Shown: positions 1 to 7,276 of the stretch, piece after piece
Numbering within the stretch: the stretch's first letter is position 1
How the letters are laid out: each line of letters starts with the position of its first letter
Virus record (IMG/VR): IMGVR_UViG_2547132272_000004
Coordinates: 1 to 7,276 of that record
Direction: 5' to 3' (one strand)
Source: a virus
Taxonomy: Duplodnaviria > Heunggongvirae > Uroviricota > Caudoviricetes
DNA: 7,276 bases
Notes under the pieces: model-generated
Told to the model about the DNA's origin: nothing
Databases searched by the model: none
The model's input: only the letters and a program-made list of their open reading frames with translations
Program-made: the position numbers and the translations under genes

Positions 1-10
1 AAAATTCACT

Positions 11-66
11 TTAAAAAGGGCGGACATCAGCCAGCAATGAAACTGATGCCGCCAAAAGGTAATCAA
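11..66 (-). ncRNA. dicF: DicF-like small RNA (3' end is an intrinsic terminator); 5' boundary approximate
   Basis: Minus strand reads ...GATTACCTTTTGGCGGCATCAGTTTCATTGCTGGCTGATGTCCGCCCTTTTTAAAG. The GGCGG-ATCAG ... CCGCCC-UUUUU part matches my recollection of the E. coli Qin DicF 3' half. It lies downstream of the dicA-side leftward operon, as in Qin. The 5' part differs from the K-12 sequence as I remember it. Confidence 0.4.
13..53 (-). terminator. Rho-independent terminator of the leftward early operon
   Basis: On the minus strand, stem GGCGGCATCAG / CTGATG(T)CCGCC (forward 19..30 pairs with 43..53, one bulged base), 12-nt loop, followed by a U5 run (forward A-run 13..17). Confidence 0.65.
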
Positions 67-393
67 CATGGGTTGTTGCAGCGGGGTTGTCACTCAGGCG
101 TATGGTCAACCTGACAACCCGGTGTTATCTCGAGGAAAAGATAGCCTCGCCATACTTACCGCCGCGCCATTTCGCGGATTGCCACAACCGGAAGCGCACG
201 GTCGAAGATGCCGGTGGCACGCAACAGAGGGAGAAATAACTTCGCCGTGCGCTTTCGCGTTATGCCCTGACTTTTCAGGGATATATCCTTTCAGTAAACT
301 GTCAGTGCCGGATTCTTATCCGTGTCCGGCGCACGACAACACGCTGTCACGTGTGGTCTCCATTCTCAACCAGTAACCTCAATGGAGGATAAA

Positions 394-636
394 ATGCCAA
401 CAAAACTATGCCCAGCCTGTAATTCTTCGTCTGATTTCTCAGAGAAGAATGGTTATTATATTTTTGATTGCCCGAAACACGGTGTATTCCATATATCAAA
501 ACTTGATGGGATATTTGTGAAACCAAGTCAGTATCAGGCTGACAAGTTAAATAAAATTCTCAATGCCAAAAGAGCGCCAGGCTATACGGGACCTATAGAG
601 GTTTTACCGCGTCCTCGTCTTGTGGAACTGGATTAA
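394..636 (+). CDS. hypothetical small zinc-ribbon-like protein (80 aa), antisense to the leftward operon
   Basis: ATG at 394 with GGAGG at 384..388 (5-nt spacer). CxxC (C6,C9) ... CxxH (C26,H29) pattern. Region visibly AT-rich. The 3' end overlaps the convergent 186-aa gene by 44 bp. An in-frame ATG at 382 has no SD. Confidence 0.5.
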   Translation: MPTKLCPACNSSSDFSEKNGYYIFDCPKHGVFHISKLDGIFVKPSQYQADKLNKILNAKRAPGYTGPIEVLPRPRLVELD

Positions 637-1153
637 ACCAGTGCTCCTGAATCGCTCGTATTTTTACCCTCGGATGATTGCCGGGGGTGATTATTAATTC
701 TGGCGGACATGGTTCTCCATTATGACAAATTGCGCTATAAGTGAAATCAGCCAGAGCAGTGCCGGTCATTATTATTCCGAACTTATCAAGCAGCGAGAGC
801 AAATCACGCAAACAGGAGTTATCAGTTTTTTCGTTATAAAATGAATCCCCTGATGCAGAGAGCATTTCACCTCGCTCTGCGATGCGTTTGACCATTTTCC
901 AGAATTCTTTTTTTGAATACTTTTCCTCGACATAAAAACCCATCGCCGAGGCAATCCGCTTTGCAGCTTCTTCAGTATCCTGGTTGTTTGTTACCGAAAC
1001 AGAGTACAATCCGATAAACGCATCGCGCACATTACGAGCCATATTATCAGTGTCTTTTTTCGTTACCGATTCCAATGCAAGTTCGTTCAGGTGTTGACGG
1101 AGTGTCTGTGCTGCAATCTCCTGGATTGATAGTGGTAAATCTTTAAATTCCAT
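593..1153 (-). CDS. hypothetical protein (186 aa), unknown function, in the early-left operon downstream of the ydfA/ydfB-like genes
   Basis: Long clean ORF. ATG at 1153..1151 with GGGG 6 nt upstream, 11 nt after the stop of the preceding small gene. Protein-like composition. No family recognised from the sequence. Confidence 0.7.
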   Translation of the reverse strand: MEFKDLPLSIQEIAAQTLRQHLNELALESVTKKDTDNMARNVRDAFIGLYSVSVTNNQDTEEAAKRIASAMGFYVEEKYSKKEFWKMVKRIAERGEMLSASGDSFYNEKTDNSCLRDLLSLLDKFGIIMTGTALADFTYSAICHNGEPCPPELIITPGNHPRVKIRAIQEHWFNPVPQDEDAVKPL

Positions 1154-1164
1154 CTTTAACCCCG

Positions 1165-1293
1165 TTAGCCGTTAGATTTTGCCGAACTGGAAAGCGCCTG
1201 TTTAAACTCACTGAAGCTGAGAGCTTCTTCGCCTTCGGCAAGGCCTTCGAAGTATTCTTCGTAAGCCTTTTCCATGATTGTGTCGAAATCCAT
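1165..1293 (-). CDS. small acidic protein (42 aa), YdfB-like by position and size
   Basis: MDFDTIMEKAYEEYFEGLAEGEEALSFSEFKQALSSSAKSNG. ATG 1293..1291 preceded by AGGTGA. Starts 1 nt after the stop of the upstream small gene. Same length and position as ydfB in Qin. An alternative in-frame ATG at 1335 would give 57 aa. Confidence 0.5.
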   Translation of the reverse strand: MDFDTIMEKAYEEYFEGLAEGEEALSFSEFKQALSSSAKSNG

Positions 1294-1294
1294 A

Positions 1295-1450
1295 TCACTC
1301 ACCTGAGTTTCTTTCCAGCCAGCGACGGGCACCATTTTCGGTTTTAAACGTTTTGCTTTTGGTATACGTCATCGCGGTGAACGTACCGTCCTGGTTGGGG
1401 AACACGCCACATACCAGAGATTCGCTGTTGCCAAGATCGATAGTATCCAT
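1295..1450 (-). CDS. small protein (51 aa), YdfA-like by position and size
   Basis: MDTIDLGNSESLVCGVFPNQDGTFTAMTYTKSKTFKTENGARRWLERNSGE. ATG 1450..1448 with GAGGT 4 nt upstream. First gene downstream of the leftward promoter. The ORF-track version extends to 1543, but that extension covers the promoter. Confidence 0.5.
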   Translation of the reverse strand: MDTIDLGNSESLVCGVFPNQDGTFTAMTYTKSKTFKTENGARRWLERNSGE

Positions 1451-1519
1451 GCTGACCTCATTTCCCCTTAACGCCGGGGTAGCGGAACTGTTTGCTGAGA
1501 ACACCGTGCGGTGTCTTGA

Positions 1520-1580
1520 TGGATGGTAATTTAGTTTTCTCATGAAAATTGGTCAAGTGTTTTTGATGAGAAAACTCAAT
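1520..1580 (-). promoter_or_regulatory. leftward early promoter (sigma70-like) with flanking operator inverted repeat
   Basis: On the minus strand: -35 TTGACC (forward 1551..1556), 17-bp spacer, -10 TAAATT (forward 1528..1533). An 11-bp inverted repeat, AGTTTTCTCAT (1533..1543) and ATGAGAAAACT (1566..1576), brackets the -35. The GAGAAAACT core recurs in the dicA/dicC intergenic palindrome. Confidence 0.5.
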
Positions 1581-1643
1581 ATTTAATGCAAAATAAAGCC
1601 AATACATTGAAATGTAAGGCTTTAAAATTAGTGAAGGGGGGGG

Positions 1644-2051
1644 TTATTGATGTTTGTTACGTTTGCGAGCTTCTAGTAGCTCGGTGAATAGGCGATTAAA
1701 ATTCTCAACGCGGGCACGGAGTTCGCTGATTTGTGCTTGCTGCTCTGATTTTGGAAGTGCGCGATACAATCGCAACATCTCCAACTCATCTTCCGATAAG
1801 TCTAAGGCGCTGTTGAGTGCAACTGGTGGATCTGGTGTTTTATCCTCGTCACCAAACAGTATCCAAGTTGGTGAACATTGCAATACCTCAGCCAGGCGAT
1901 GCAAATTTTGCCCGCGCGGGGCTGTATGGTCGCTTTCCCATAGTGAAATTGATGAGCCAGATACGCCAGCAGCTTTGCTTAAATCGTTTTGACTTAAACC
2001 AACCTGTTTGCGTCTTTCTCTAATTCGTTGGCCTAAAGTTTTCTCGTTCAT
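1644..2051 (-). CDS. dicA: DicA-like prophage repressor (XRE-family HTH, 135 aa, no peptidase domain)
   Basis: Translation MNEKTLGQRIRERRK...LQCSPTWILFGDEDK...RARVENFNRLFTELLEARKRNKHQ matches E. coli Qin DicA as I recall it, including LQCSPTWILFGDEDK and the C-terminal RARV.NFN.LF.ELL.AR motif. An upstream in-frame ATG at 2102 would add 17 aa but lies in the operator region. Confidence 0.85.
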   Translation of the reverse strand: MNEKTLGQRIRERRKQVGLSQNDLSKAAGVSGSSISLWESDHTAPRGQNLHRLAEVLQCSPTWILFGDEDKTPDPPVALNSALDLSEDELEMLRLYRALPKSEQQAQISELRARVENFNRLFTELLEARKRNKHQ

Positions 2052-2128
2052 ATTTAGATATCTTAATAACCCTTGACTTGAGATTCCTTGAGTGATTACC
2101 ATTGAGAAAACTCAACTTTGGAGGGGTG
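2052..2128. promoter_or_regulatory. divergent promoter/operator region between the DicA-like and DicC-like genes
   Basis: 77-bp intergenic region. Perfect 14-bp palindrome TTGAGAAAACTCAA at 2102..2115. Direct CTTGAG repeats at about 2078 and 2087. Plus-strand -35-like TTGACT at 2073..2078. 8-bp palindrome AGATATCT at 2056..2063. Exact -10 elements not confidently placed. Confidence 0.55.
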
Positions 2129-2356
2129 ATGTTTAAATCAGACGTAATTAATTTTTATGGGACGAAAGCCAAAGTAGCGAAAGCTGCTGGTGTTGATCCA
2201 TCTGCTGTTTCTCAATGGGGAGAACTGGTTCCTGAAGGTCGCGCGATGCGCCTGCAAGAGGCATCTGGCGGGGAACTTCAGTACGATCCCAAAGTTTATG
2301 ACGAATATCGTAAGGCAAAGCGTGCGGGGCGGTTGAACAATGAAAATCACCCCTGA
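2129..2356 (+). CDS. dicC: DicC/YdaS-like Cro-type HTH regulator (75 aa)
   Basis: ATG 2129 with GGAGG at 2120..2124. FYGTKAKVAKAAGVDPSAVSQWGELVPEGRAMRLQEASGG is the Cro/YdaS/DicC-type HTH signature. Divergent from the DicA-like gene. Confidence 0.75.
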   Translation: MFKSDVINFYGTKAKVAKAAGVDPSAVSQWGELVPEGRAMRLQEASGGELQYDPKVYDEYRKAKRAGRLNNENHP

Positions 2357-2891
2357 ACAGGTTTGTGAGGCTCTGGATGCCTGGGTATGCCGACCAGGAA
2401 TGACACAGGAGCAGGCGACGATATTAATCACAGAAGCCTTCTGGGCCCTGAAAGAACGCCCGAACATCGATGTTCAACGCGTCACGTTTGATGATGGCGC
2501 GGTTGATCAACGGGCGCTGGGCGTTAACCGGGTGAAGATATTCGAACGCTGGAAAGCTATCGACACCAGGGATAAGCGTGAAAAATTCACGGCGCTGATT
2601 CCGGCAATTATGGAGGCTATCCGGATCAGCGATTTCAGGTTGTATTGTGAAATTACTGACGGAAAAAGCATTACGTACATGATCGCCGGGTTAAACAAAG
2701 AATATGGCGATGTGGTGGAGTCCGGGCTGCTTTTTGCGGATCCAGCTGTTGTGGAACGTGAGACTGACGAGCTTATAGAAAAAGCTATTGCTTTCAAGCA
2801 CGCGTATCGTCAGCAATACCAATATTACTTTGCAGATAAACAAATATCTGTCTGGGGTTCGTATGAGTATCGATGCACTACGATGGGCTAA
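2340..2891 (+). CDS. CII-position protein, possibly YdaT-like (183 aa)
   Basis: ATG 2340 overlaps the DicC-like stop by 17 bp, and its 3' end overlaps the next gene (translational coupling). Position matches the RacR-YdaS-YdaT arrangement. The family name is assigned from position and length, not from a confirmed motif. Confidence 0.6.
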   Translation: MKITPEQVCEALDAWVCRPGMTQEQATILITEAFWALKERPNIDVQRVTFDDGAVDQRALGVNRVKIFERWKAIDTRDKREKFTALIPAIMEAIRISDFRLYCEITDGKSITYMIAGLNKEYGDVVESGLLFADPAVVERETDELIEKAIAFKHAYRQQYQYYFADKQISVWGSYEYRCTTMG

Positions 2892-3903
2892 AAAGGTGAA
2901 AACCGGCAGTTCATCCAGTAAGTCAGTATTGACCTGGCTTGCTGATATGTGCGGTGCCGATTTGTGTGCATACCCGTCTGTATCAGCCCTGGCAGAAGTA
3001 ACGGAACTGAACAAAAAGACTGTGCAGGACAGCTTACGACACCTGATGGAGATTGGGTTAATTGTTGATACCGGTGAGAGAAAAGGCAGAACAAAGCAAA
3101 TTGTGGTGTACCGACTTATCGGTGTAGAAGAAAGTGTTGCCGAGCCTGAATACACCCAAAAACGGGAGTCTTTAAAGGTGGGTAAAATTGGTGCTGTTAA
3201 TAAAAACAGTACCGAAAACGGTTATGTTTCAGCACAAAACAGACCCAAAAACGGAACTCTTAACTGCATGGAAAATAACCAAAGACACCCAAATTTTCCA
3301 TTAAAGACACCCAAAAACGGATCACGGAACCCAAAGGAACCCAAAGATCTAAACCCCACACATAACGCACGCGAGAGTGCTCCGACCAGTGAGCAGGATG
3401 TTTTGTCGTTACAGGCAACGCCCCCTGTATTCCTGGATGGCCTGAGCGAACCCATCGGAAAATTTCCGATGACCGATAGCTGGCATCCGTCGCGGGATTT
3501 TCGGCGACGGGCTGCGTTGTGGGGGATGGCTTTGCCGGAACCAGAATTTACACCTGCTGAACTTGCCGCCTTCCGGGACTACTGGGCAGCGGAGGGGAAA
3601 GTTTTCACGCAGGTTCAGTGGGAGCAGAAATTCGCCCGTCACGTAAATCACGTCAGGGCGCAGGCTAAACCAGTCAGCAAGGGGGTAAACCATGCAGCAG
3701 CACCAGGTGGCACCGCATCACGGGCAGTTCAGGAAATTCGGGCAGCACGTGAGCGGTGGGAGCGTGAAAACGGATTTATCAACGACGGAAACTGCCTGGA
3801 AGCTGTGGGAACTCATGGGGGAGGTTTATTCGAACCGCTGGACCCAGAAGAACGGGGCCGCACCTTCGAAGCTCTGGATTGCACAGATTGGCGCGATGAC
3901 TGA
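2863..3903 (+). CDS. replication initiator, lambda O-like organisation (N-terminal winged-HTH, iteron-encoding linker, C-terminal domain)
   Basis: ATG 2863 (MSIDALRWAKK...). The N-terminal 90 aa look like a wHTH DNA-binding domain. The central low-complexity stretch is encoded by iteron-like DNA repeats. A P-like gene follows. Confidence 0.7.
   Translation: MSIDALRWAKKVKTGSSSSKSVLTWLADMCGADLCAYPSVSALAEVTELNKKTVQDSLRHLMEIGLIVDTGERKGRTKQIVVYRLIGVEESVAEPEYTQKRESLKVGKIGAVNKNSTENGYVSAQNRPKNGTLNCMENNQRHPNFPLKTPKNGSRNPKEPKDLNPTHNARESAPTSEQDVLSLQATPPVFLDGLSEPIGKFPMTDSWHPSRDFRRRAALWGMALPEPEFTPAELAAFRDYWAAEGKVFTQVQWEQKFARHVNHVRAQAKPVSKGVNHAAAPGGTASRAVQEIRAARERWERENGFINDGNCLEAVGTHGGGLFEPLDPEERGRTFEALDCTDWRDD
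3152..3347. repeat. iteron-like direct repeats (putative prophage origin) inside the initiator gene
   Basis: Perfect 12-mer ACCCAAAAACGG at 3154..3165, 3243..3254 and 3309..3320. Degenerate copies at 3211..3221 (ACCGAAAACGG), 3288..3294, 3329..3337 and 3339..3347. AAAGACACCCAAA occurs at 3281..3293 and 3303..3315. Confidence 0.55.
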
Positions 3904-4357
3904 GCAGCAAATCCGGCAGGTCTGCCGCCAGTGCATGGACCGTTGCAGGGCAGGTGAAACATGGCCTCCGGACCTGGCTGAGTTTGTGGCGCTGATTTCG
4001 GAAAGCGGGGCCAATCCATTTGGTCTGACGGTGGATGCTGTGATGGAGGAGTACCGACGCTGGCGCAATGAGTCCTGGCGATACGACGGAAGCGATAAAT
4101 ATCCGTGGCCTCAGCCTGTGCTGTATCACATTTGCCTCGAGATGCGTTCAAAGGGGATTGAGCGCCAGATGACCGAAGGTGAGTTAAAACGACTTGCAGA
4201 ACGGCAACTGGCGAAATGGGCAAAGCATGTTGGTGACGGCTTCAGCGTTCCGCCCGTACGGCGGCAACTGGCAGCACCAAAACGCCCGTCGGGGCCAACA
4301 CCAATTGAGTTGCTGAAACAGGAGTATGAACGCCGGAAAGCGGCTGGTTTTGTATGA
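3692..4357 (+). CDS. lambda P-like replication protein (helicase loader); start uncertain
   Basis: The C-terminal half (..WPPDLAEFVAL..KYPWPQP..) resembles lambda P as I recall it. ATG 3692 has GGGGG 6 nt upstream but would overlap the O-like gene by 212 bp in another frame. Alternative starts are ATG 3815 and ATG 3896, the latter in an ATGACTGA coupling arrangement. Confidence 0.6.
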   Translation: MQQHQVAPHHGQFRKFGQHVSGGSVKTDLSTTETAWKLWELMGEVYSNRWTQKNGAAPSKLWIAQIGAMTEQQIRQVCRQCMDRCRAGETWPPDLAEFVALISESGANPFGLTVDAVMEEYRRWRNESWRYDGSDKYPWPQPVLYHICLEMRSKGIERQMTEGELKRLAERQLAKWAKHVGDGFSVPPVRRQLAAPKRPSGPTPIELLKQEYERRKAAGFV

Positions 4358-4387
4358 ATTGTGAAGGTGATTTTTTCAGGAGGATTT

Positions 4388-4615
4388 ATGGCGAAACCTT
4401 TTTCTCTCGAACAGCGGGAAGAGCTGAAGGCACGAATTATCGGATTGGTACGCAAAAATGGACGCATGACGATGTCACAGCTGGAGAGAGCGACGGGAGC
4501 AGGCTGGCATTCGGTTCGACGCTGCCTTGTGGATGTGCTGGCTTGTGGCGATTTATACATGTCCGGTAAATACGGTGTTTTTTGCATCAGAGCAGGCGTA
4601 TCGCGTATGGCGTAA
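4388..4615 (+). CDS. hypothetical small protein (75 aa), possible winged-helix DNA-binding fold
   Basis: ATG 4388 with AGGAGG at 4378..4383. The segment MTMSQLERATGAGWHSVRRCLVDVL is HTH-like. Contains the T6 run at 4578..4583. Confidence 0.6.
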   Translation: MAKPFSLEQREELKARIIGLVRKNGRMTMSQLERATGAGWHSVRRCLVDVLACGDLYMSGKYGVFCIRAGVSRMA

Positions 4616-4784
4616 GACACCGGAGAAAAGAACCGACCTGACACTGATTCGAAAGTTACCAGACGGAGAAATACGCCGCTACGACAGGCGTCAGAACATA
4701 ATCTGTAGCGAGTGCCGGAAGAGCGAAGCTATGCAGCGCGTACTGGCGTTTTATCAGGGTAATTTTCAGGAGGTGGTGCGGTGA
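4533..4784 (+). CDS. hypothetical ORF overlapping the preceding gene, possibly its frameshifted continuation
   Basis: No start codon or SD lies downstream of the 4615 stop in this frame. The 3' end is coupled to the next gene (GTGA at 4781..4784). A one-base change in the T6 run at 4578..4583 would fuse it in frame to the 4388 ORF. Confidence 0.35.
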   Translation: MCWLVAIYTCPVNTVFFASEQAYRVWRKTPEKRTDLTLIRKLPDGEIRRYDRRQNIICSECRKSEAMQRVLAFYQGNFQEVVR

Positions 4785-5047
4785 GTGAATCAAAATGCCA
4801 GGTTAAGGGCAACAAGATAGAACCATGTGCAGCACTGGCAAAGTCCCTTGAGCATGATGCTGAATACACGATGCGAAAAGGTCTGCTGATATACAAAGTC
4901 TGGAATGAGAATTTAACTCGCGCCCCTGATTTGGTGATGTTGCGTTCCGGTGAATTTTCTAAATCACCTATTCGAGTCTCATTTTGCCCGTTCTGTGGTG
5001 AAAGTCTGAAAACATGGAAAAAGGAGACAACCAGTGAGCAAGATTGA
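4781..5047 (+). CDS. hypothetical small protein (88 aa) with C-terminal CPFC motif
   Basis: GTG start at 4781 with AGGAGG at 4768..4773 (7-nt spacer). Cysteines at C6, C16 and C69-x2-C72. Confidence 0.6.
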   Translation: MSESKCQVKGNKIEPCAALAKSLEHDAEYTMRKGLLIYKVWNENLTRAPDLVMLRSGEFSKSPIRVSFCPFCGESLKTWKKETTSEQD

Positions 5048-5933
5048 CTATCAGGCACTGCGTGAGGCGGCGGAACGTGCAATTCCAGCAATGGAACGCC
5101 TGTTAATGTTGCCAGCTGATGATGATTTGTTAAGTGAACAGGAACTTAAAGATTACGGTGTGGATATTGATGCGCTCAACGCCTTCAAATTTCTGGCCGG
5201 ACCAGAAACCGTGCTGGCACTACTGGATGAACGGGAAAGAAACCAGCAATACATAAAACGCCGAGACCAGGAAAACGAAATGATGGTTGATGCCATGCAC
5301 GCGGCTATTGCCCTGACAAGTGTTGGAATAGACCTGGACGATTACGACGAATGCGTCTTGCGACTACATGAATGGGGCGCTTTACCTGACTATTGCATTG
5401 CGCTTTATGTGGATTTCGTTCACGGAATTGTATCGAAAAACAAACTTCTGGATTTTGGTTATATCAACGGTGCACCGGTATGGACGTTGCGTGATGAGCT
5501 GGAAGCCGCAGAGAACAACCTTATTGATAGTGAGTGCCATGTTGCTGAACTGGAAGAAGCGCTACGCGATAAGCAGGCGTTACTTGAAGCATCAGAGAAG
5601 CGCATAGCAGAACTGGAAACAAAAGCGAACCAGCAAACCAGAATAAGCGATAAGGGGCTGACAAAGCTGATTGCCGATGCTGACAAAATGCTGGGTATGC
5701 GTTCGCCGGTTATAGACAGCGAGTGGTGGACGCTTTTACGGCAGTTCCTGATTGAACTTCAGGATCGCCGCAGAAACAGCATTTCTGAATCTGGAATCCG
5801 TGCTGAAACCCTGAATGATTTAATCCGACATATTGACAGAAACCTGGATATTGACGCGATGAAATCGCCGTTTGAACTGTCATCTGAAATTGTGGATTAC
5901 GTTAATAGGCAACTGCACAAGGAGAATTCGTAA
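5034..5933 (+). CDS. hypothetical coiled-coil protein (299 aa); N-terminus reminiscent of Ead/Ea22-like prophage proteins
   Basis: GTG start at 5034 with AAGGAGA at 5021..5027. The N-terminal M.IDYQALREAAERA resembles Ead/Ea22-like N-termini from memory only. Central heptad-like acidic region (ELEAAENNLIDSECHVAELEEALRDKQALLEASEKRIAELE). Confidence 0.65.
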   Translation: MSKIDYQALREAAERAIPAMERLLMLPADDDLLSEQELKDYGVDIDALNAFKFLAGPETVLALLDERERNQQYIKRRDQENEMMVDAMHAAIALTSVGIDLDDYDECVLRLHEWGALPDYCIALYVDFVHGIVSKNKLLDFGYINGAPVWTLRDELEAAENNLIDSECHVAELEEALRDKQALLEASEKRIAELETKANQQTRISDKGLTKLIADADKMLGMRSPVIDSEWWTLLRQFLIELQDRRRNSISESGIRAETLNDLIRHIDRNLDIDAMKSPFELSSEIVDYVNRQLHKENS

Positions 5934-6109
5934 TGCAGGTGGCATTTGTTGGCTTGTTACCGCATCCGATCCGCCTTTGGGCGGATATGTCACTCATAAA
6001 AACGCATTTTTTTACTACTGATGGCGGCATTCCGGCACCAAAGCGCCGCCATACCGGTATTGCAGCGGCACGACGAGCAGCAAAGAGACGCAGGAGAGCA
6101 AAACGATGA
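5933..6109 (+). CDS. hypothetical small protein (58 aa), hydrophobic N-terminus and Arg/Lys-rich tail
   Basis: ATG 5933 overlaps the upstream stop (TAATG), with AAGGAGAA 6 nt upstream. Below the ORF-track size cutoff. Two GC-rich hairpins lie within it, so coding status is uncertain. Confidence 0.35.
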   Translation: MQVAFVGLLPHPIRLWADMSLIKTHFFTTDGGIPAPKRRHTGIAAARRAAKRRRRAKR

Positions 6110-6294
6110 AAAACCGTAAAGCAAAGATTCTGTTAGCTCGCAGAAACGGTGTTGGGGTCTGGCGATGGTTGAGGATTAGTAACAGACGAGTGAGGTTGAC
6201 GGGGTGTTGCGGGGTGATGGGTCACAGCTGTTGCAAAAAGCCCAGCGCGGCGCAAAACCGCTGGAAAAACCACTTGCGCACTAAAGGAGAGTGA
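6106..6294 (+). CDS. hypothetical small basic protein (62 aa), Arg- and Cys-rich
   Basis: ATG 6106 overlaps the previous stop (ATGA), with AGGAG 9 nt upstream. Stop is 1 nt before the HNH gene start. Unusual composition. Confidence 0.35.
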   Translation: MKNRKAKILLARRNGVGVWRWLRISNRRVRLTGCCGVMGHSCCKKPSAAQNRWKNHLRTKGE

Positions 6295-6295
6295 T

Positions 6296-6661
6296 ATGGC
6301 ACTGACGAAAAAACAACGTGCAGAACTGCGCATGAAGTTCGGCGGTCGCTGCGCTTATTGCGGCTGCGAACTTGGCGAAAAGTGGCATGCAGACCATGTA
6401 AAACCGGTCATTCGTTTTGATGGAAATATGCTTCACCAGGAACGTGACGATATATCCAACATGGTTCCGGCATGCCACCCATGCAATCTGCACAAGCATT
6501 GCAGTAGCCTGGAAGATTATCGGCGAATTATCAGTGATGGTCGTCGTGAATTCCTTGCGTCCGGGAAAGGCAAAGCGCTGGTTCGTATGGGATTGGTTGA
6601 AATGAAACCTGACCCGGTTGTGTTCTGGTTTGAAAAATATCAAGAAGGGGCTACAGCATGA
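6296..6661 (+). CDS. HNH endonuclease (121 aa)
   Basis: AAGGAGA at 6283..6289 before ATG 6296. Canonical HNH/zinc-finger pattern: CAYCGC ... HADHVKP ... [14 protein letters not shown]. Confidence 0.85.
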
Positions 6662-7002
6662 CGACTTTTACCAGAGAGCAGTTAATAGCTCACGCAGAGG
6701 AGACTATTGAAGCACAGAGACTGTGCATACCGGGCACAATCGACCATGACATCATCCGCACATATAAGATGGATATTGCTGTTCTGGAAATCGCACTGGT
6801 ATCGCTGGCAGCAGAGCCAGCCGGTAAATTGCATGAATACAAACCAGTGGGATATCAGCGTCTGGTTGATGAGTTAATCATGCTGGTAAAGCAGTTAACC
6901 TGGCAACTGAGGAAAGCGAAGCCAGACTGCAAATTACCGGATAAGGCGATGAGTTATCTGGAGCGGAACGGACTGATAAGCGTGGAGGATATTTTACGAT
7001 GA
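6658..7002 (+). CDS. hypothetical protein (114 aa)
   Basis: ATG 6658 overlaps the HNH stop (ATGA), consistent with translational coupling. Protein-like composition. No family recognised. Confidence 0.6.
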
Positions 7003-7235
7003 CTGGCCTGAAGCATTCACAACGGTAGGAATTGCGATGGCAGTGGCGCTGGTGGTGTATTCGATTTGCCGCTGGGGATAAAAACGGTTTGCGGGAAAAA
7101 GGGAGTTAAGTAAAATTGCTGCGGGTGCTTGAGGCTATCTGTCTCAGGCATGAACACCAAAAGGCAGATAGAGAAAAGCCCCAGTTAACATTACGCGTCC
7201 TGCAAGACGCTTAACATTAATCTGAGGCCCAATCT

Positions 7236-7276
7236 ATGTCTCACAAATGTAGGTTAGCCTCTTACGTGCCGAAAGG
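7236..7276 (+). CDS. possible 5' end of a CDS running off the window (MSHKCRLASYVPK...)
   Basis: ATG 7236 with GAGG at 7224..7227. Open to the window end. Only 13 codons are visible. Confidence 0.25.
   Translation, partial: MSHKCRLASYVPK

Follow-up and report, generated by a model that had tools for sequence, protein, structure and literature searches.

The 7,276-bp window analysed here (the whole of positions 1 to 7,276 of the IMG/VR virus record IMGVR_UViG_2547132272_000004) is the early-right region of a lambdoid Escherichia coli prophage, with 97% identity to the 'PPompW' prophages of enterohemorrhagic E. coli (EHEC) strains, and it contains a gene for a replication initiator in which a family of short repeats is embedded. 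The segment from 3152 to 3324, which lies within this gene, is likely the replication origin (ori) of the prophage and comprises five putative iterons derived from an 18-bp palindrome together with one decayed slot. The in-gene arrangement of an origin is already known; the initiator family to which this one belongs is common and so far unstudied. Initiator-binding iterons and a putative origin inside the initiator gene, as in lambda, had been proposed in a first-pass annotation of the window, and the comparative evidence presented below speaks in favor of that proposal.

Repeats within the initiator gene

The sequence ACCCAAAAACGG was found exactly at positions 3154, 3243 and 3309 of the plus strand and at no further position in the 7276 bases. 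Degenerate copies were present at 3210 (TACCGAAAACGG), 3287 (ACCCAAATTTTC), 3329 (ACCCAAAGGAAC) and 3339 (ACCCAAAGATCT), in agreement with the three perfect and at least four degenerate copies described in the first-pass annotation. The start-to-start spacings of the seven copies were 56, 33, 44, 22, 20 and 10 bp; of the values given earlier (57, 32, 45, 21, 20 and 10), the last two were right and the first four were each off by one. When the window was shuffled with its dinucleotides preserved, 1 of 1000 sequences had some 12-mer present three times without mismatch in a 200-bp span; shuffling of the local A-rich segment gave 1 of 2000. A chance origin of the repeats is excluded. The half-site A[AC]CCAAA was found seven times on the plus strand, every time between 3154 and 3345, and once on the minus strand, and a search for local direct repeats (seed 10, length of at least 14) detected this family alone in the whole window.

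The full site was an 18-bp inverted repeat around an A-tract (ACACCC-AAAAAC-GGGTGT), and the five sites and the relic between 3152 and 3324 were in the same orientation, which agrees with the pattern expected of an in-gene iteron origin, several repeats of 15-22 bp in one orientation within approximately 200 bp (Table 1). Of the seven copies first regarded as iteron-like, five are plausible iterons. The copies at 3329 and 3339 are probably not binding sites, because the 10-bp tandem in which they lie aligns to non-iteron sequence in six other genera.

Slots in related genera and in E. coli alleles

The repeat region was aligned with orthologues from Edwardsiella, Kluyvera, Plesiomonas, Serratia and Scandinavium, giving 7 sequences. 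The iteron slots were kept position by position in the aligned genera and the rest of the linker diverged. The 56-bp gap between the first two iterons of the window is due to the second slot (3178-3195), which lost its motif, and no hidden iteron was detected when this gap was scored on both strands. In that slot GTGGGT (reverse complement ACCCAC) was found instead of the left arm ACACCC, and the right side GGTGCTGTT was retained. One further slot of some relatives was missing from the window, and an insertion between 3241 and 3285 was common to the window, Kluyvera and Scandinavium. The spacing, which had been called irregular and atypical, is indeed irregular, and its irregularity is explained by the loss of one ancestral slot plus the insertion. 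The window array appears to be a somewhat eroded form of a regular array of 6-7 iterons in which five plausible sites remain.

The spacings of the five plausible iterons (56, 33, 44 and 22 bp) were each within 1 bp of a multiple of 11, and a position of the iterons at 3154, 3210, 3243, 3287 and 3309 on one face of the helix is possible; the period was picked post hoc and relatives use 17, 18 and 24 bp, hence this observation is not counted as evidence.

Allele variation, as opposed to diversity, was followed in 80 near-identical E. coli prophage loci representing 25 alleles. The length of the array was constant over all of them. The copies at 3154 and 3309 were never altered, and the 11-base core CCCAAAAACGG at 3309 was invariant in 80 of 80 E. 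coli loci and in 7 of 7 aligned sequences. In iteron 1 the sole change was A/T at position 15, the T variant being the perfect palindrome, which was also present in phage EPP-1. Some alleles had mutations in the copies at 3243 and 3210. At 95% identity or more, the module was present in 908 of 5426 complete E. coli genomes, O157:H7 and other EHEC included, and the initiator open reading frame (ORF) was intact in most of them.

Constraint on the repeats as DNA

Homologous initiators with 26-77% identity were found in Enterobacterales, Acinetobacter, Vibrio, Marinomonas, Pseudoalteromonas, Burkholderia and Desulfovibrionaceae. Their genes were taken from five phages (Edwardsiella EPP-1, Burkholderia Bcep176, Acinetobacter AP22, Vibrio H20 and E. 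coli phiV10), from 80 genomes of different species and from the 80 near-identical E. coli prophages. Family statistics were obtained from 82 usable diverse loci, in which repeats were counted as a de novo 9-mer family in the 400 bp following the winged-helix domain of the initiator. All five phage genes had arrays of CCCAAAAACGG(G)-like repeats immediately past the winged helix. Four or more copies in the 400 bp past the domain were found in 76 of 82 loci compared to 59 of 939 control windows (6%), and this 400-bp stretch was the repeat-richest of its own locus in 69 of 82.

Translation of the core in the window used all three reading frames, giving TQKR (3154), PKNG (3243 and 3309) and HPNF (3287), and mixed frames within one array were found in 66 of 81 homologous arrays. 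The spacings between neighbors were not divisible by 3 in 158 of 311 cases, with modes at 17, 18, 22, 24 and 33 bp. Codon usage was determined for the 102 P(K/E)NG tetrapeptides among the 176 core copies of the homologue linkers and compared to the remainder of the same genes. Proline was encoded by CCC in 102 of 102 cases compared to 12% elsewhere, lysine of PKNG by AAA in 72 of 72 compared to 65%, glutamate of PENG by GAA in 30 of 30 compared to 59%, and asparagine by AAC in 94 of 102 compared to 50%. Taken together, the use of three frames, the spacings that are not multiples of 3 and the frozen synonymous codons indicate a constraint on the repeats as DNA that exceeds the needs of the encoded protein; on this comparative evidence, selection acts on the DNA of the repeats and not on the protein. 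A comparison of conservation at the two levels had been suggested in the first-pass annotation, and its outcome was a clear DNA-level constraint. The DNA signal that overlies the coding region explains why the linker is unusual in composition and codon usage.

In other lineages the CC-A-tract-GG core was retained, the outer arms were altered and the position of the array was fixed, a pattern that may also reflect shared ancestry. The arms in Acinetobacter were AGTACC...GGTACT and AACAGTnCCAACAAyGG. Distant homologues had other repeats at the same gene position with 17-22 bp spacing, namely CGCCCCCGAAC in Desulfovibrionaceae (L159), GACACCCCCCGTCCAGAATC in Methylophilaceae (L165) and GACCAGTAGGGAAAACA in a beta-proteobacterium (L166), and these divergent arrays would be of use for deciphering a recognition code.

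Initiator protein

The initiator matched phrog_1032 'replication initiation protein' (1e-90, PHROG) and shared 97% identity with a protein named 'phage replication protein' in PPompW prophages of E. coli. Its N-terminal winged helix (amino acids 1-88) is presumed to be the iteron-binding domain, and the wing motif DTGE(R/K)xG was near-universal among homologues. In Foldseek searches the N-domain model gave weak winged-helix matches, which included the RepA_N plasmid initiators 5kbj, 4pql and 4pt7 (E 0.02-0.05). The N-domain profile found nothing significant among PDB sequences, the top match being the winged-helix protein 2d1h (E 0.06). For HTH_36 (PF13730) the window protein scored 20.7 bits against a Pfam cut-off of 25, and homologues at 53-57% identity bear a precomputed PF13730 annotation.

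The linker (amino acids 89-195) is predicted to be disordered, with an AlphaFold2 predicted local distance difference test (pLDDT) score below 35. The repeats encode a part of it (..YTQKRES.., ..RPKNGT.., ..TPKNGSRNPKEPKDL..) at approximately amino acids 97-162, of which the five iterons account for 97-154, so that the earlier description of a low-complexity linker stands. Amino acids 200-268 formed a confidently predicted domain in the AlphaFold2 model. In Foldseek the C-terminal domain matched the host primosome protein DnaT (6aeq, 4ou6) with 58% identity, a TM-score of 0.9 and a root-mean-square deviation of 1.0, which together with the Pfam result (Table 1) places it among the DnaT domains. 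For a host replication protein copied in a phage, 58% identity to the host domain is unusually high. The repeats are flanked by the winged helix (1-88) on the N-terminal side and by the DnaT-like domain (194-279) on the C-terminal side, and this layout indicates that they encode an unconstrained linker, which connects a DNA-binding domain to a domain for binding of a partner or of single-stranded DNA (ssDNA). Such a linker can host an origin because its protein sequence, predicted to be disordered, is almost unconstrained.

Movement of the initiator and its sites as a module

Downstream of approximately 3342-3347, up to the initiator stop codon, the DNA was 91% identical to ydaU of Rac-SA53, and this joint coincides with the end of the array. 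The position of the joint directly after the array indicates that the DNA-binding domain and the iterons travel as a single module, and their joint movement is expected of an initiator-origin pair. The partners of the winged helix and iterons varied and included a DnaB-like helicase in AP22 and a P-like protein in phiV10. The P-like gene of the window matched Pfam Phage_lambda_P (6e-16) and phrog_109 (2e-62), and BLASTP matched it to lambda P and phiV10 P. As much as 212 nt of its ORF is shared, in another frame, with the 3' end of the initiator gene; phrog_15931 matched both frames, and the gene is annotated shorter in the PPompW record. Since similarity to phiV10 P begins at ORF residue 45 (nt 3824), before the initiator stop codon, at least about 80 nt appear to be coding in two frames.

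Comparison with known systems

In lambda and in the Shiga toxin (Stx) phages 933W/P27 the origin is located centrally in the initiator gene (PMC7466680), where the DNA encodes a linker that joins an N-terminal DNA-binding domain to a C-terminal partner-binding domain, and the putative origin of the window is placed likewise. The annotated iterons of lambda (TCCCTCAAAACGAGGGAA and three variants) are located at 39034-39118 inside O, the design being that of the window, with 4-6 iterons of approximately 18 bp in the same orientation and an inverted repeat around an A-tract (TCCCTC-AAAACG-AGGGAA in lambda). The gene order cI, cro, cII-like, initiator, P-like and ren-like is also common to both. 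In contrast, the C-terminal domain is a DnaT-like ssDNA-binding domain in the window and a P-binding domain in lambda O, the spacing is 22-56 bp compared to 20-24 bp in lambda, and the window array is not followed by a separate 40-bp AT-rich tract. Pfam Phage_rep_O was not matched at E <= 0.01, and a comparison of the N-domain profile with lambda O by hhalign was not significant, with a probability of 2%; the sole sequence tie to lambda O was to PHROG families labelled 'O-like' (1e-11 to 1e-12). The name 'O-like' given to the gene earlier thus holds for its architecture and function only.

In the RepA_N initiator of pSK41, the N-terminal winged helix binds Rep boxes located centrally in the rep gene, the linker encoded there is dispensable, and host replisome proteins are brought in through the C-terminal domain (PMC5703833). 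The weak matches of the N-domain model to 5kbj, 4pql and 4pt7 are a likeness to this group (pSK41 and pTZ2162 of staphylococci). The RepA_N systems differ in being Firmicutes plasmids without detectable sequence similarity, and in that their C-terminal domain binds DnaG primase.

The nearest relative with the same module was the plaque-forming phage phiV10. Its epsilon15-type module ('DnaT family' initiator and 'replication protein P') resembles that of the window in the three-part initiator (42% identity), in the P-like gene downstream and in the CCCAAAAACGGG iterons past the winged helix, of which there are 6 copies with 18-24 bp spacing. The array of phiV10 is tighter and more regular than that of the window and has full GGG right arms, and phiV10 is a podovirus, not a lambdoid prophage.

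Likeness to the YdaU/YdaV region of Rac was found in ydaU, which matches the C-terminal half of the window initiator, and in Rac/Qin-type neighbors, namely dicA/dicC-type regulators and a YdaT-like gene; the dicA/dicC-type labels follow the annotation of the 97%-identical PPompW record and of Rac-SA53. In contrast to the window, Rac YdaU differs in its N-terminal domain and lacks repeats of this kind, and ydaU is followed by ydaV ('putative replication protein') with no P-like gene. DUF1376 (PF07120) is the N-terminal domain in relatives whose C-terminal half is of the Rac type.

No publication on these iterons was found in a literature search that included phiV10/epsilon15, non-lambdoid Stx replication regions and phage replication modules, which is weak evidence as subscription journals are poorly covered; a search with the exact CCCAAAAACGG returned unrelated primers alone.

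Weighing of the origin assignment

By analogy with lambda O at ori-lambda and with RepA_N, initiator dimers would bind the iterons through the N-terminal winged helix, with one arm of the palindrome per monomer. Binding to A-tract sites in the same orientation would bend the DNA into an O-some-like complex, and this complex would destabilize and open the A+T-rich spacers between 3170 and 3300. This segment was the least stable of the initiator gene, and from its stability profile we infer a candidate unwinding region. The opened strand may then be held by the C-terminal DnaT-like ssDNA-binding domain, which together with the downstream lambda-P-like protein would recruit the host DnaB helicase. 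From the Cro-side promoter, rightward transcription would cross the origin, as it does in lambda.

Several findings weigh against the assignment of 3152-3324 as the origin. The stability profile showed no discrete lambda-like AT-rich block downstream of the window array, and the family-average AT excess just past the arrays was only +5-8%. Among the sites, iteron 1 alone retains a good right arm, the others keeping the left arm and A-tract with 12-15 of 18 positions; one slot is lost, and the array is spaced more loosely than in relatives. As a result of the degenerate right arms, the lost slot and the loose spacing, the origin of this prophage lineage could be weakened. The confidence of the winged-helix model was moderate (pLDDT 55-83) and the fold matches were weak (E about 0.01-0.05). 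In addition, the compared loci are mutually related, so the counts obtained from them are not independent events.

An alternative, which we consider improbable, is that the sites bind the initiator and the origin lies elsewhere in the prophage, the role of the array being autoregulation, copy control (handcuffing or titration) or superinfection interference. Plasmid iterons also serve copy control, ectopic copies of lambda ori inhibit phage growth (PMC4488673), and no clear DNA-unwinding element adjoins the window array. However, the 7.3-kb early region contained no other repeat array, and the layout is that of lambda and the Stx phages and of pSK41, whose in-gene sites are the origin (PMC7466680, PMC5703833). 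There was also the family-average AT enrichment directly past the array, and the binding domain and iterons move as a module among different helicase or loader partners.

Slightly less favored is a remnant origin that no longer fires, in a defective prophage with decaying iterons. The ancestral slot without motif, the degenerate right arms of four sites, the mutated copies at 3243 and 3210 in some alleles and the P-like gene overlapping the initiator out of frame at the mosaic joint would fit such a remnant. Decay is opposed by the fixed array length and the unchanged copies at 3154 and 3309 among the E. coli alleles, and by the mostly intact initiator ORF in the 908 genomes. Moreover, five sites are left and lambda requires four iterons (PMC7466680).

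The weakest alternative, that the repeats are a protein feature alone, a low-complexity flexible PKNG linker with no cis role of the DNA, agrees with the predicted disorder and with PKNG/PENG being the commonest translation of the core (102 of 176), but it is largely refuted by one DNA core read in three frames in the window and the family, by spacings of which half are not multiples of 3, by synonymous positions frozen relative to the same genes and by the palindromic form of the sites.

Genes and features of the window

The positions of the sites, protein domains and neighboring genes are given in Table 1. The cII-like gene (phrog_163) also matched Pfam YdaT_toxin and has a 29-nt overlap with the start of the initiator gene. 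At the end of the window (7123-7276) there was an Rfam match to the sok antitoxin RNA with 101 bits, interrupted by the window end, which indicates a putative hok/sok-type toxin-antitoxin locus ('gef' in the PPompW record).

Table 1. Coordinates of sites, domains and genes in the 7,276-bp window
Feature	Position	Strand	Remarks
Iteron 1, ACACCCAAAAACGGGAGT	3152-3169	+	17/18 to palindrome ACACCCAAAAACGGGTGT; read TQKR; slot kept in 7 genera
Relic of ancestral iteron slot, GTGGGTAAAATTGGTGCT	3178-3195	+	Motif lost; aligns with ACACCCAAAAACGGTGCT of Edwardsiella, Plesiomonas and Serratia relatives
Degenerate iteron, AGTACCGAAAACGGTTAT	3208-3225	+	12/18; read STENGY; positional orthologue of GTTACCGAAAACGGGTGT in relatives
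Iteron, AGACCCAAAAACGGAACT	3241-3258	+	Exact 12-mer, 14/18; read RPKNGT; slot conserved
Variant iteron, ACACCCAAATTTTCCATT	3285-3302	+	Left arm only; third frame (HPNF); orthologous to CACCCAATTTTGG in relatives
Iteron, ACACCCAAAAACGGATCA	3307-3324	+	Exact 12-mer, 15/18; read TPKNGS
10-bp tandem GGAACCCAAA x2.1	3326-3346	+	Tandem Repeats Finder; contains copies 3329 and 3339; aligns to GGAATCTACCAGGAACCTAAAG in relatives
Least stable, A-rich DNA of initiator gene	3170-3300	.	Nearest-neighbor stability profile; GC 0.37-0.38, AT skew up to 0.5
Initiator, 346 amino acids	2863-3903	+	Winged helix, disordered linker, DnaT-like domain
N-terminal winged-helix domain, amino acids 1-88	2863-3126	+	AlphaFold2: H-H-H-H and beta-hairpin wing, pLDDT 55-83
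DnaT-like ssDNA-binding domain, amino acids 194-279	3442-3699	+	Pfam DnaT (PF17948) 8.6e-18, 64.3 bits vs cut-off 25; NCBIfam DnaT 2e-27
cI-like repressor	1644-2102	-	
P22-Cro-like	2102-2356		
cII-like / YdaT-like	2340-2891		
Lambda-P-like helicase-loader ORF	3692-4357	+	Start uncertain: 3692, 3815 or 3896
Ren-like protein	4361-4615		

Significance

The finding leaves the understanding of how such origins work unchanged. It supplies a likely origin position for the replication module of the 908 E. coli genomes, among them those of EHEC strains, where prophage replication is what spreads virulence genes. In addition, the gene is a clear case of a DNA signal overlaid on a coding region, and the finding provides a simple family-wide rule, an array of A-tract palindromes directly past the winged-helix domain, which could serve for origin annotation in many temperate phages.

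It is conceivable, though we hold it as a tentative and rather doubtful extension, that these elements form a single deeply conserved initiator-iteron system across gamma-, beta- and delta-proteobacterial phages, in which the wing DTGERKGxT reads CC(C/G)AAAACGG-centred palindromes. The ancestry and recognition logic of this system are perhaps common to lambda O and the lambda iterons, and the present branch would have been fused to a copy of the host DnaT ssDNA-binding domain. If this were true, opening of the origin would be coupled to strand capture by a DnaT mimic and then to a P-type loader, a helicase-loading route not described for lambda, and origins would become predictable from the motif in roughly one in six E. 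coli genomes as well as in many further prophages.

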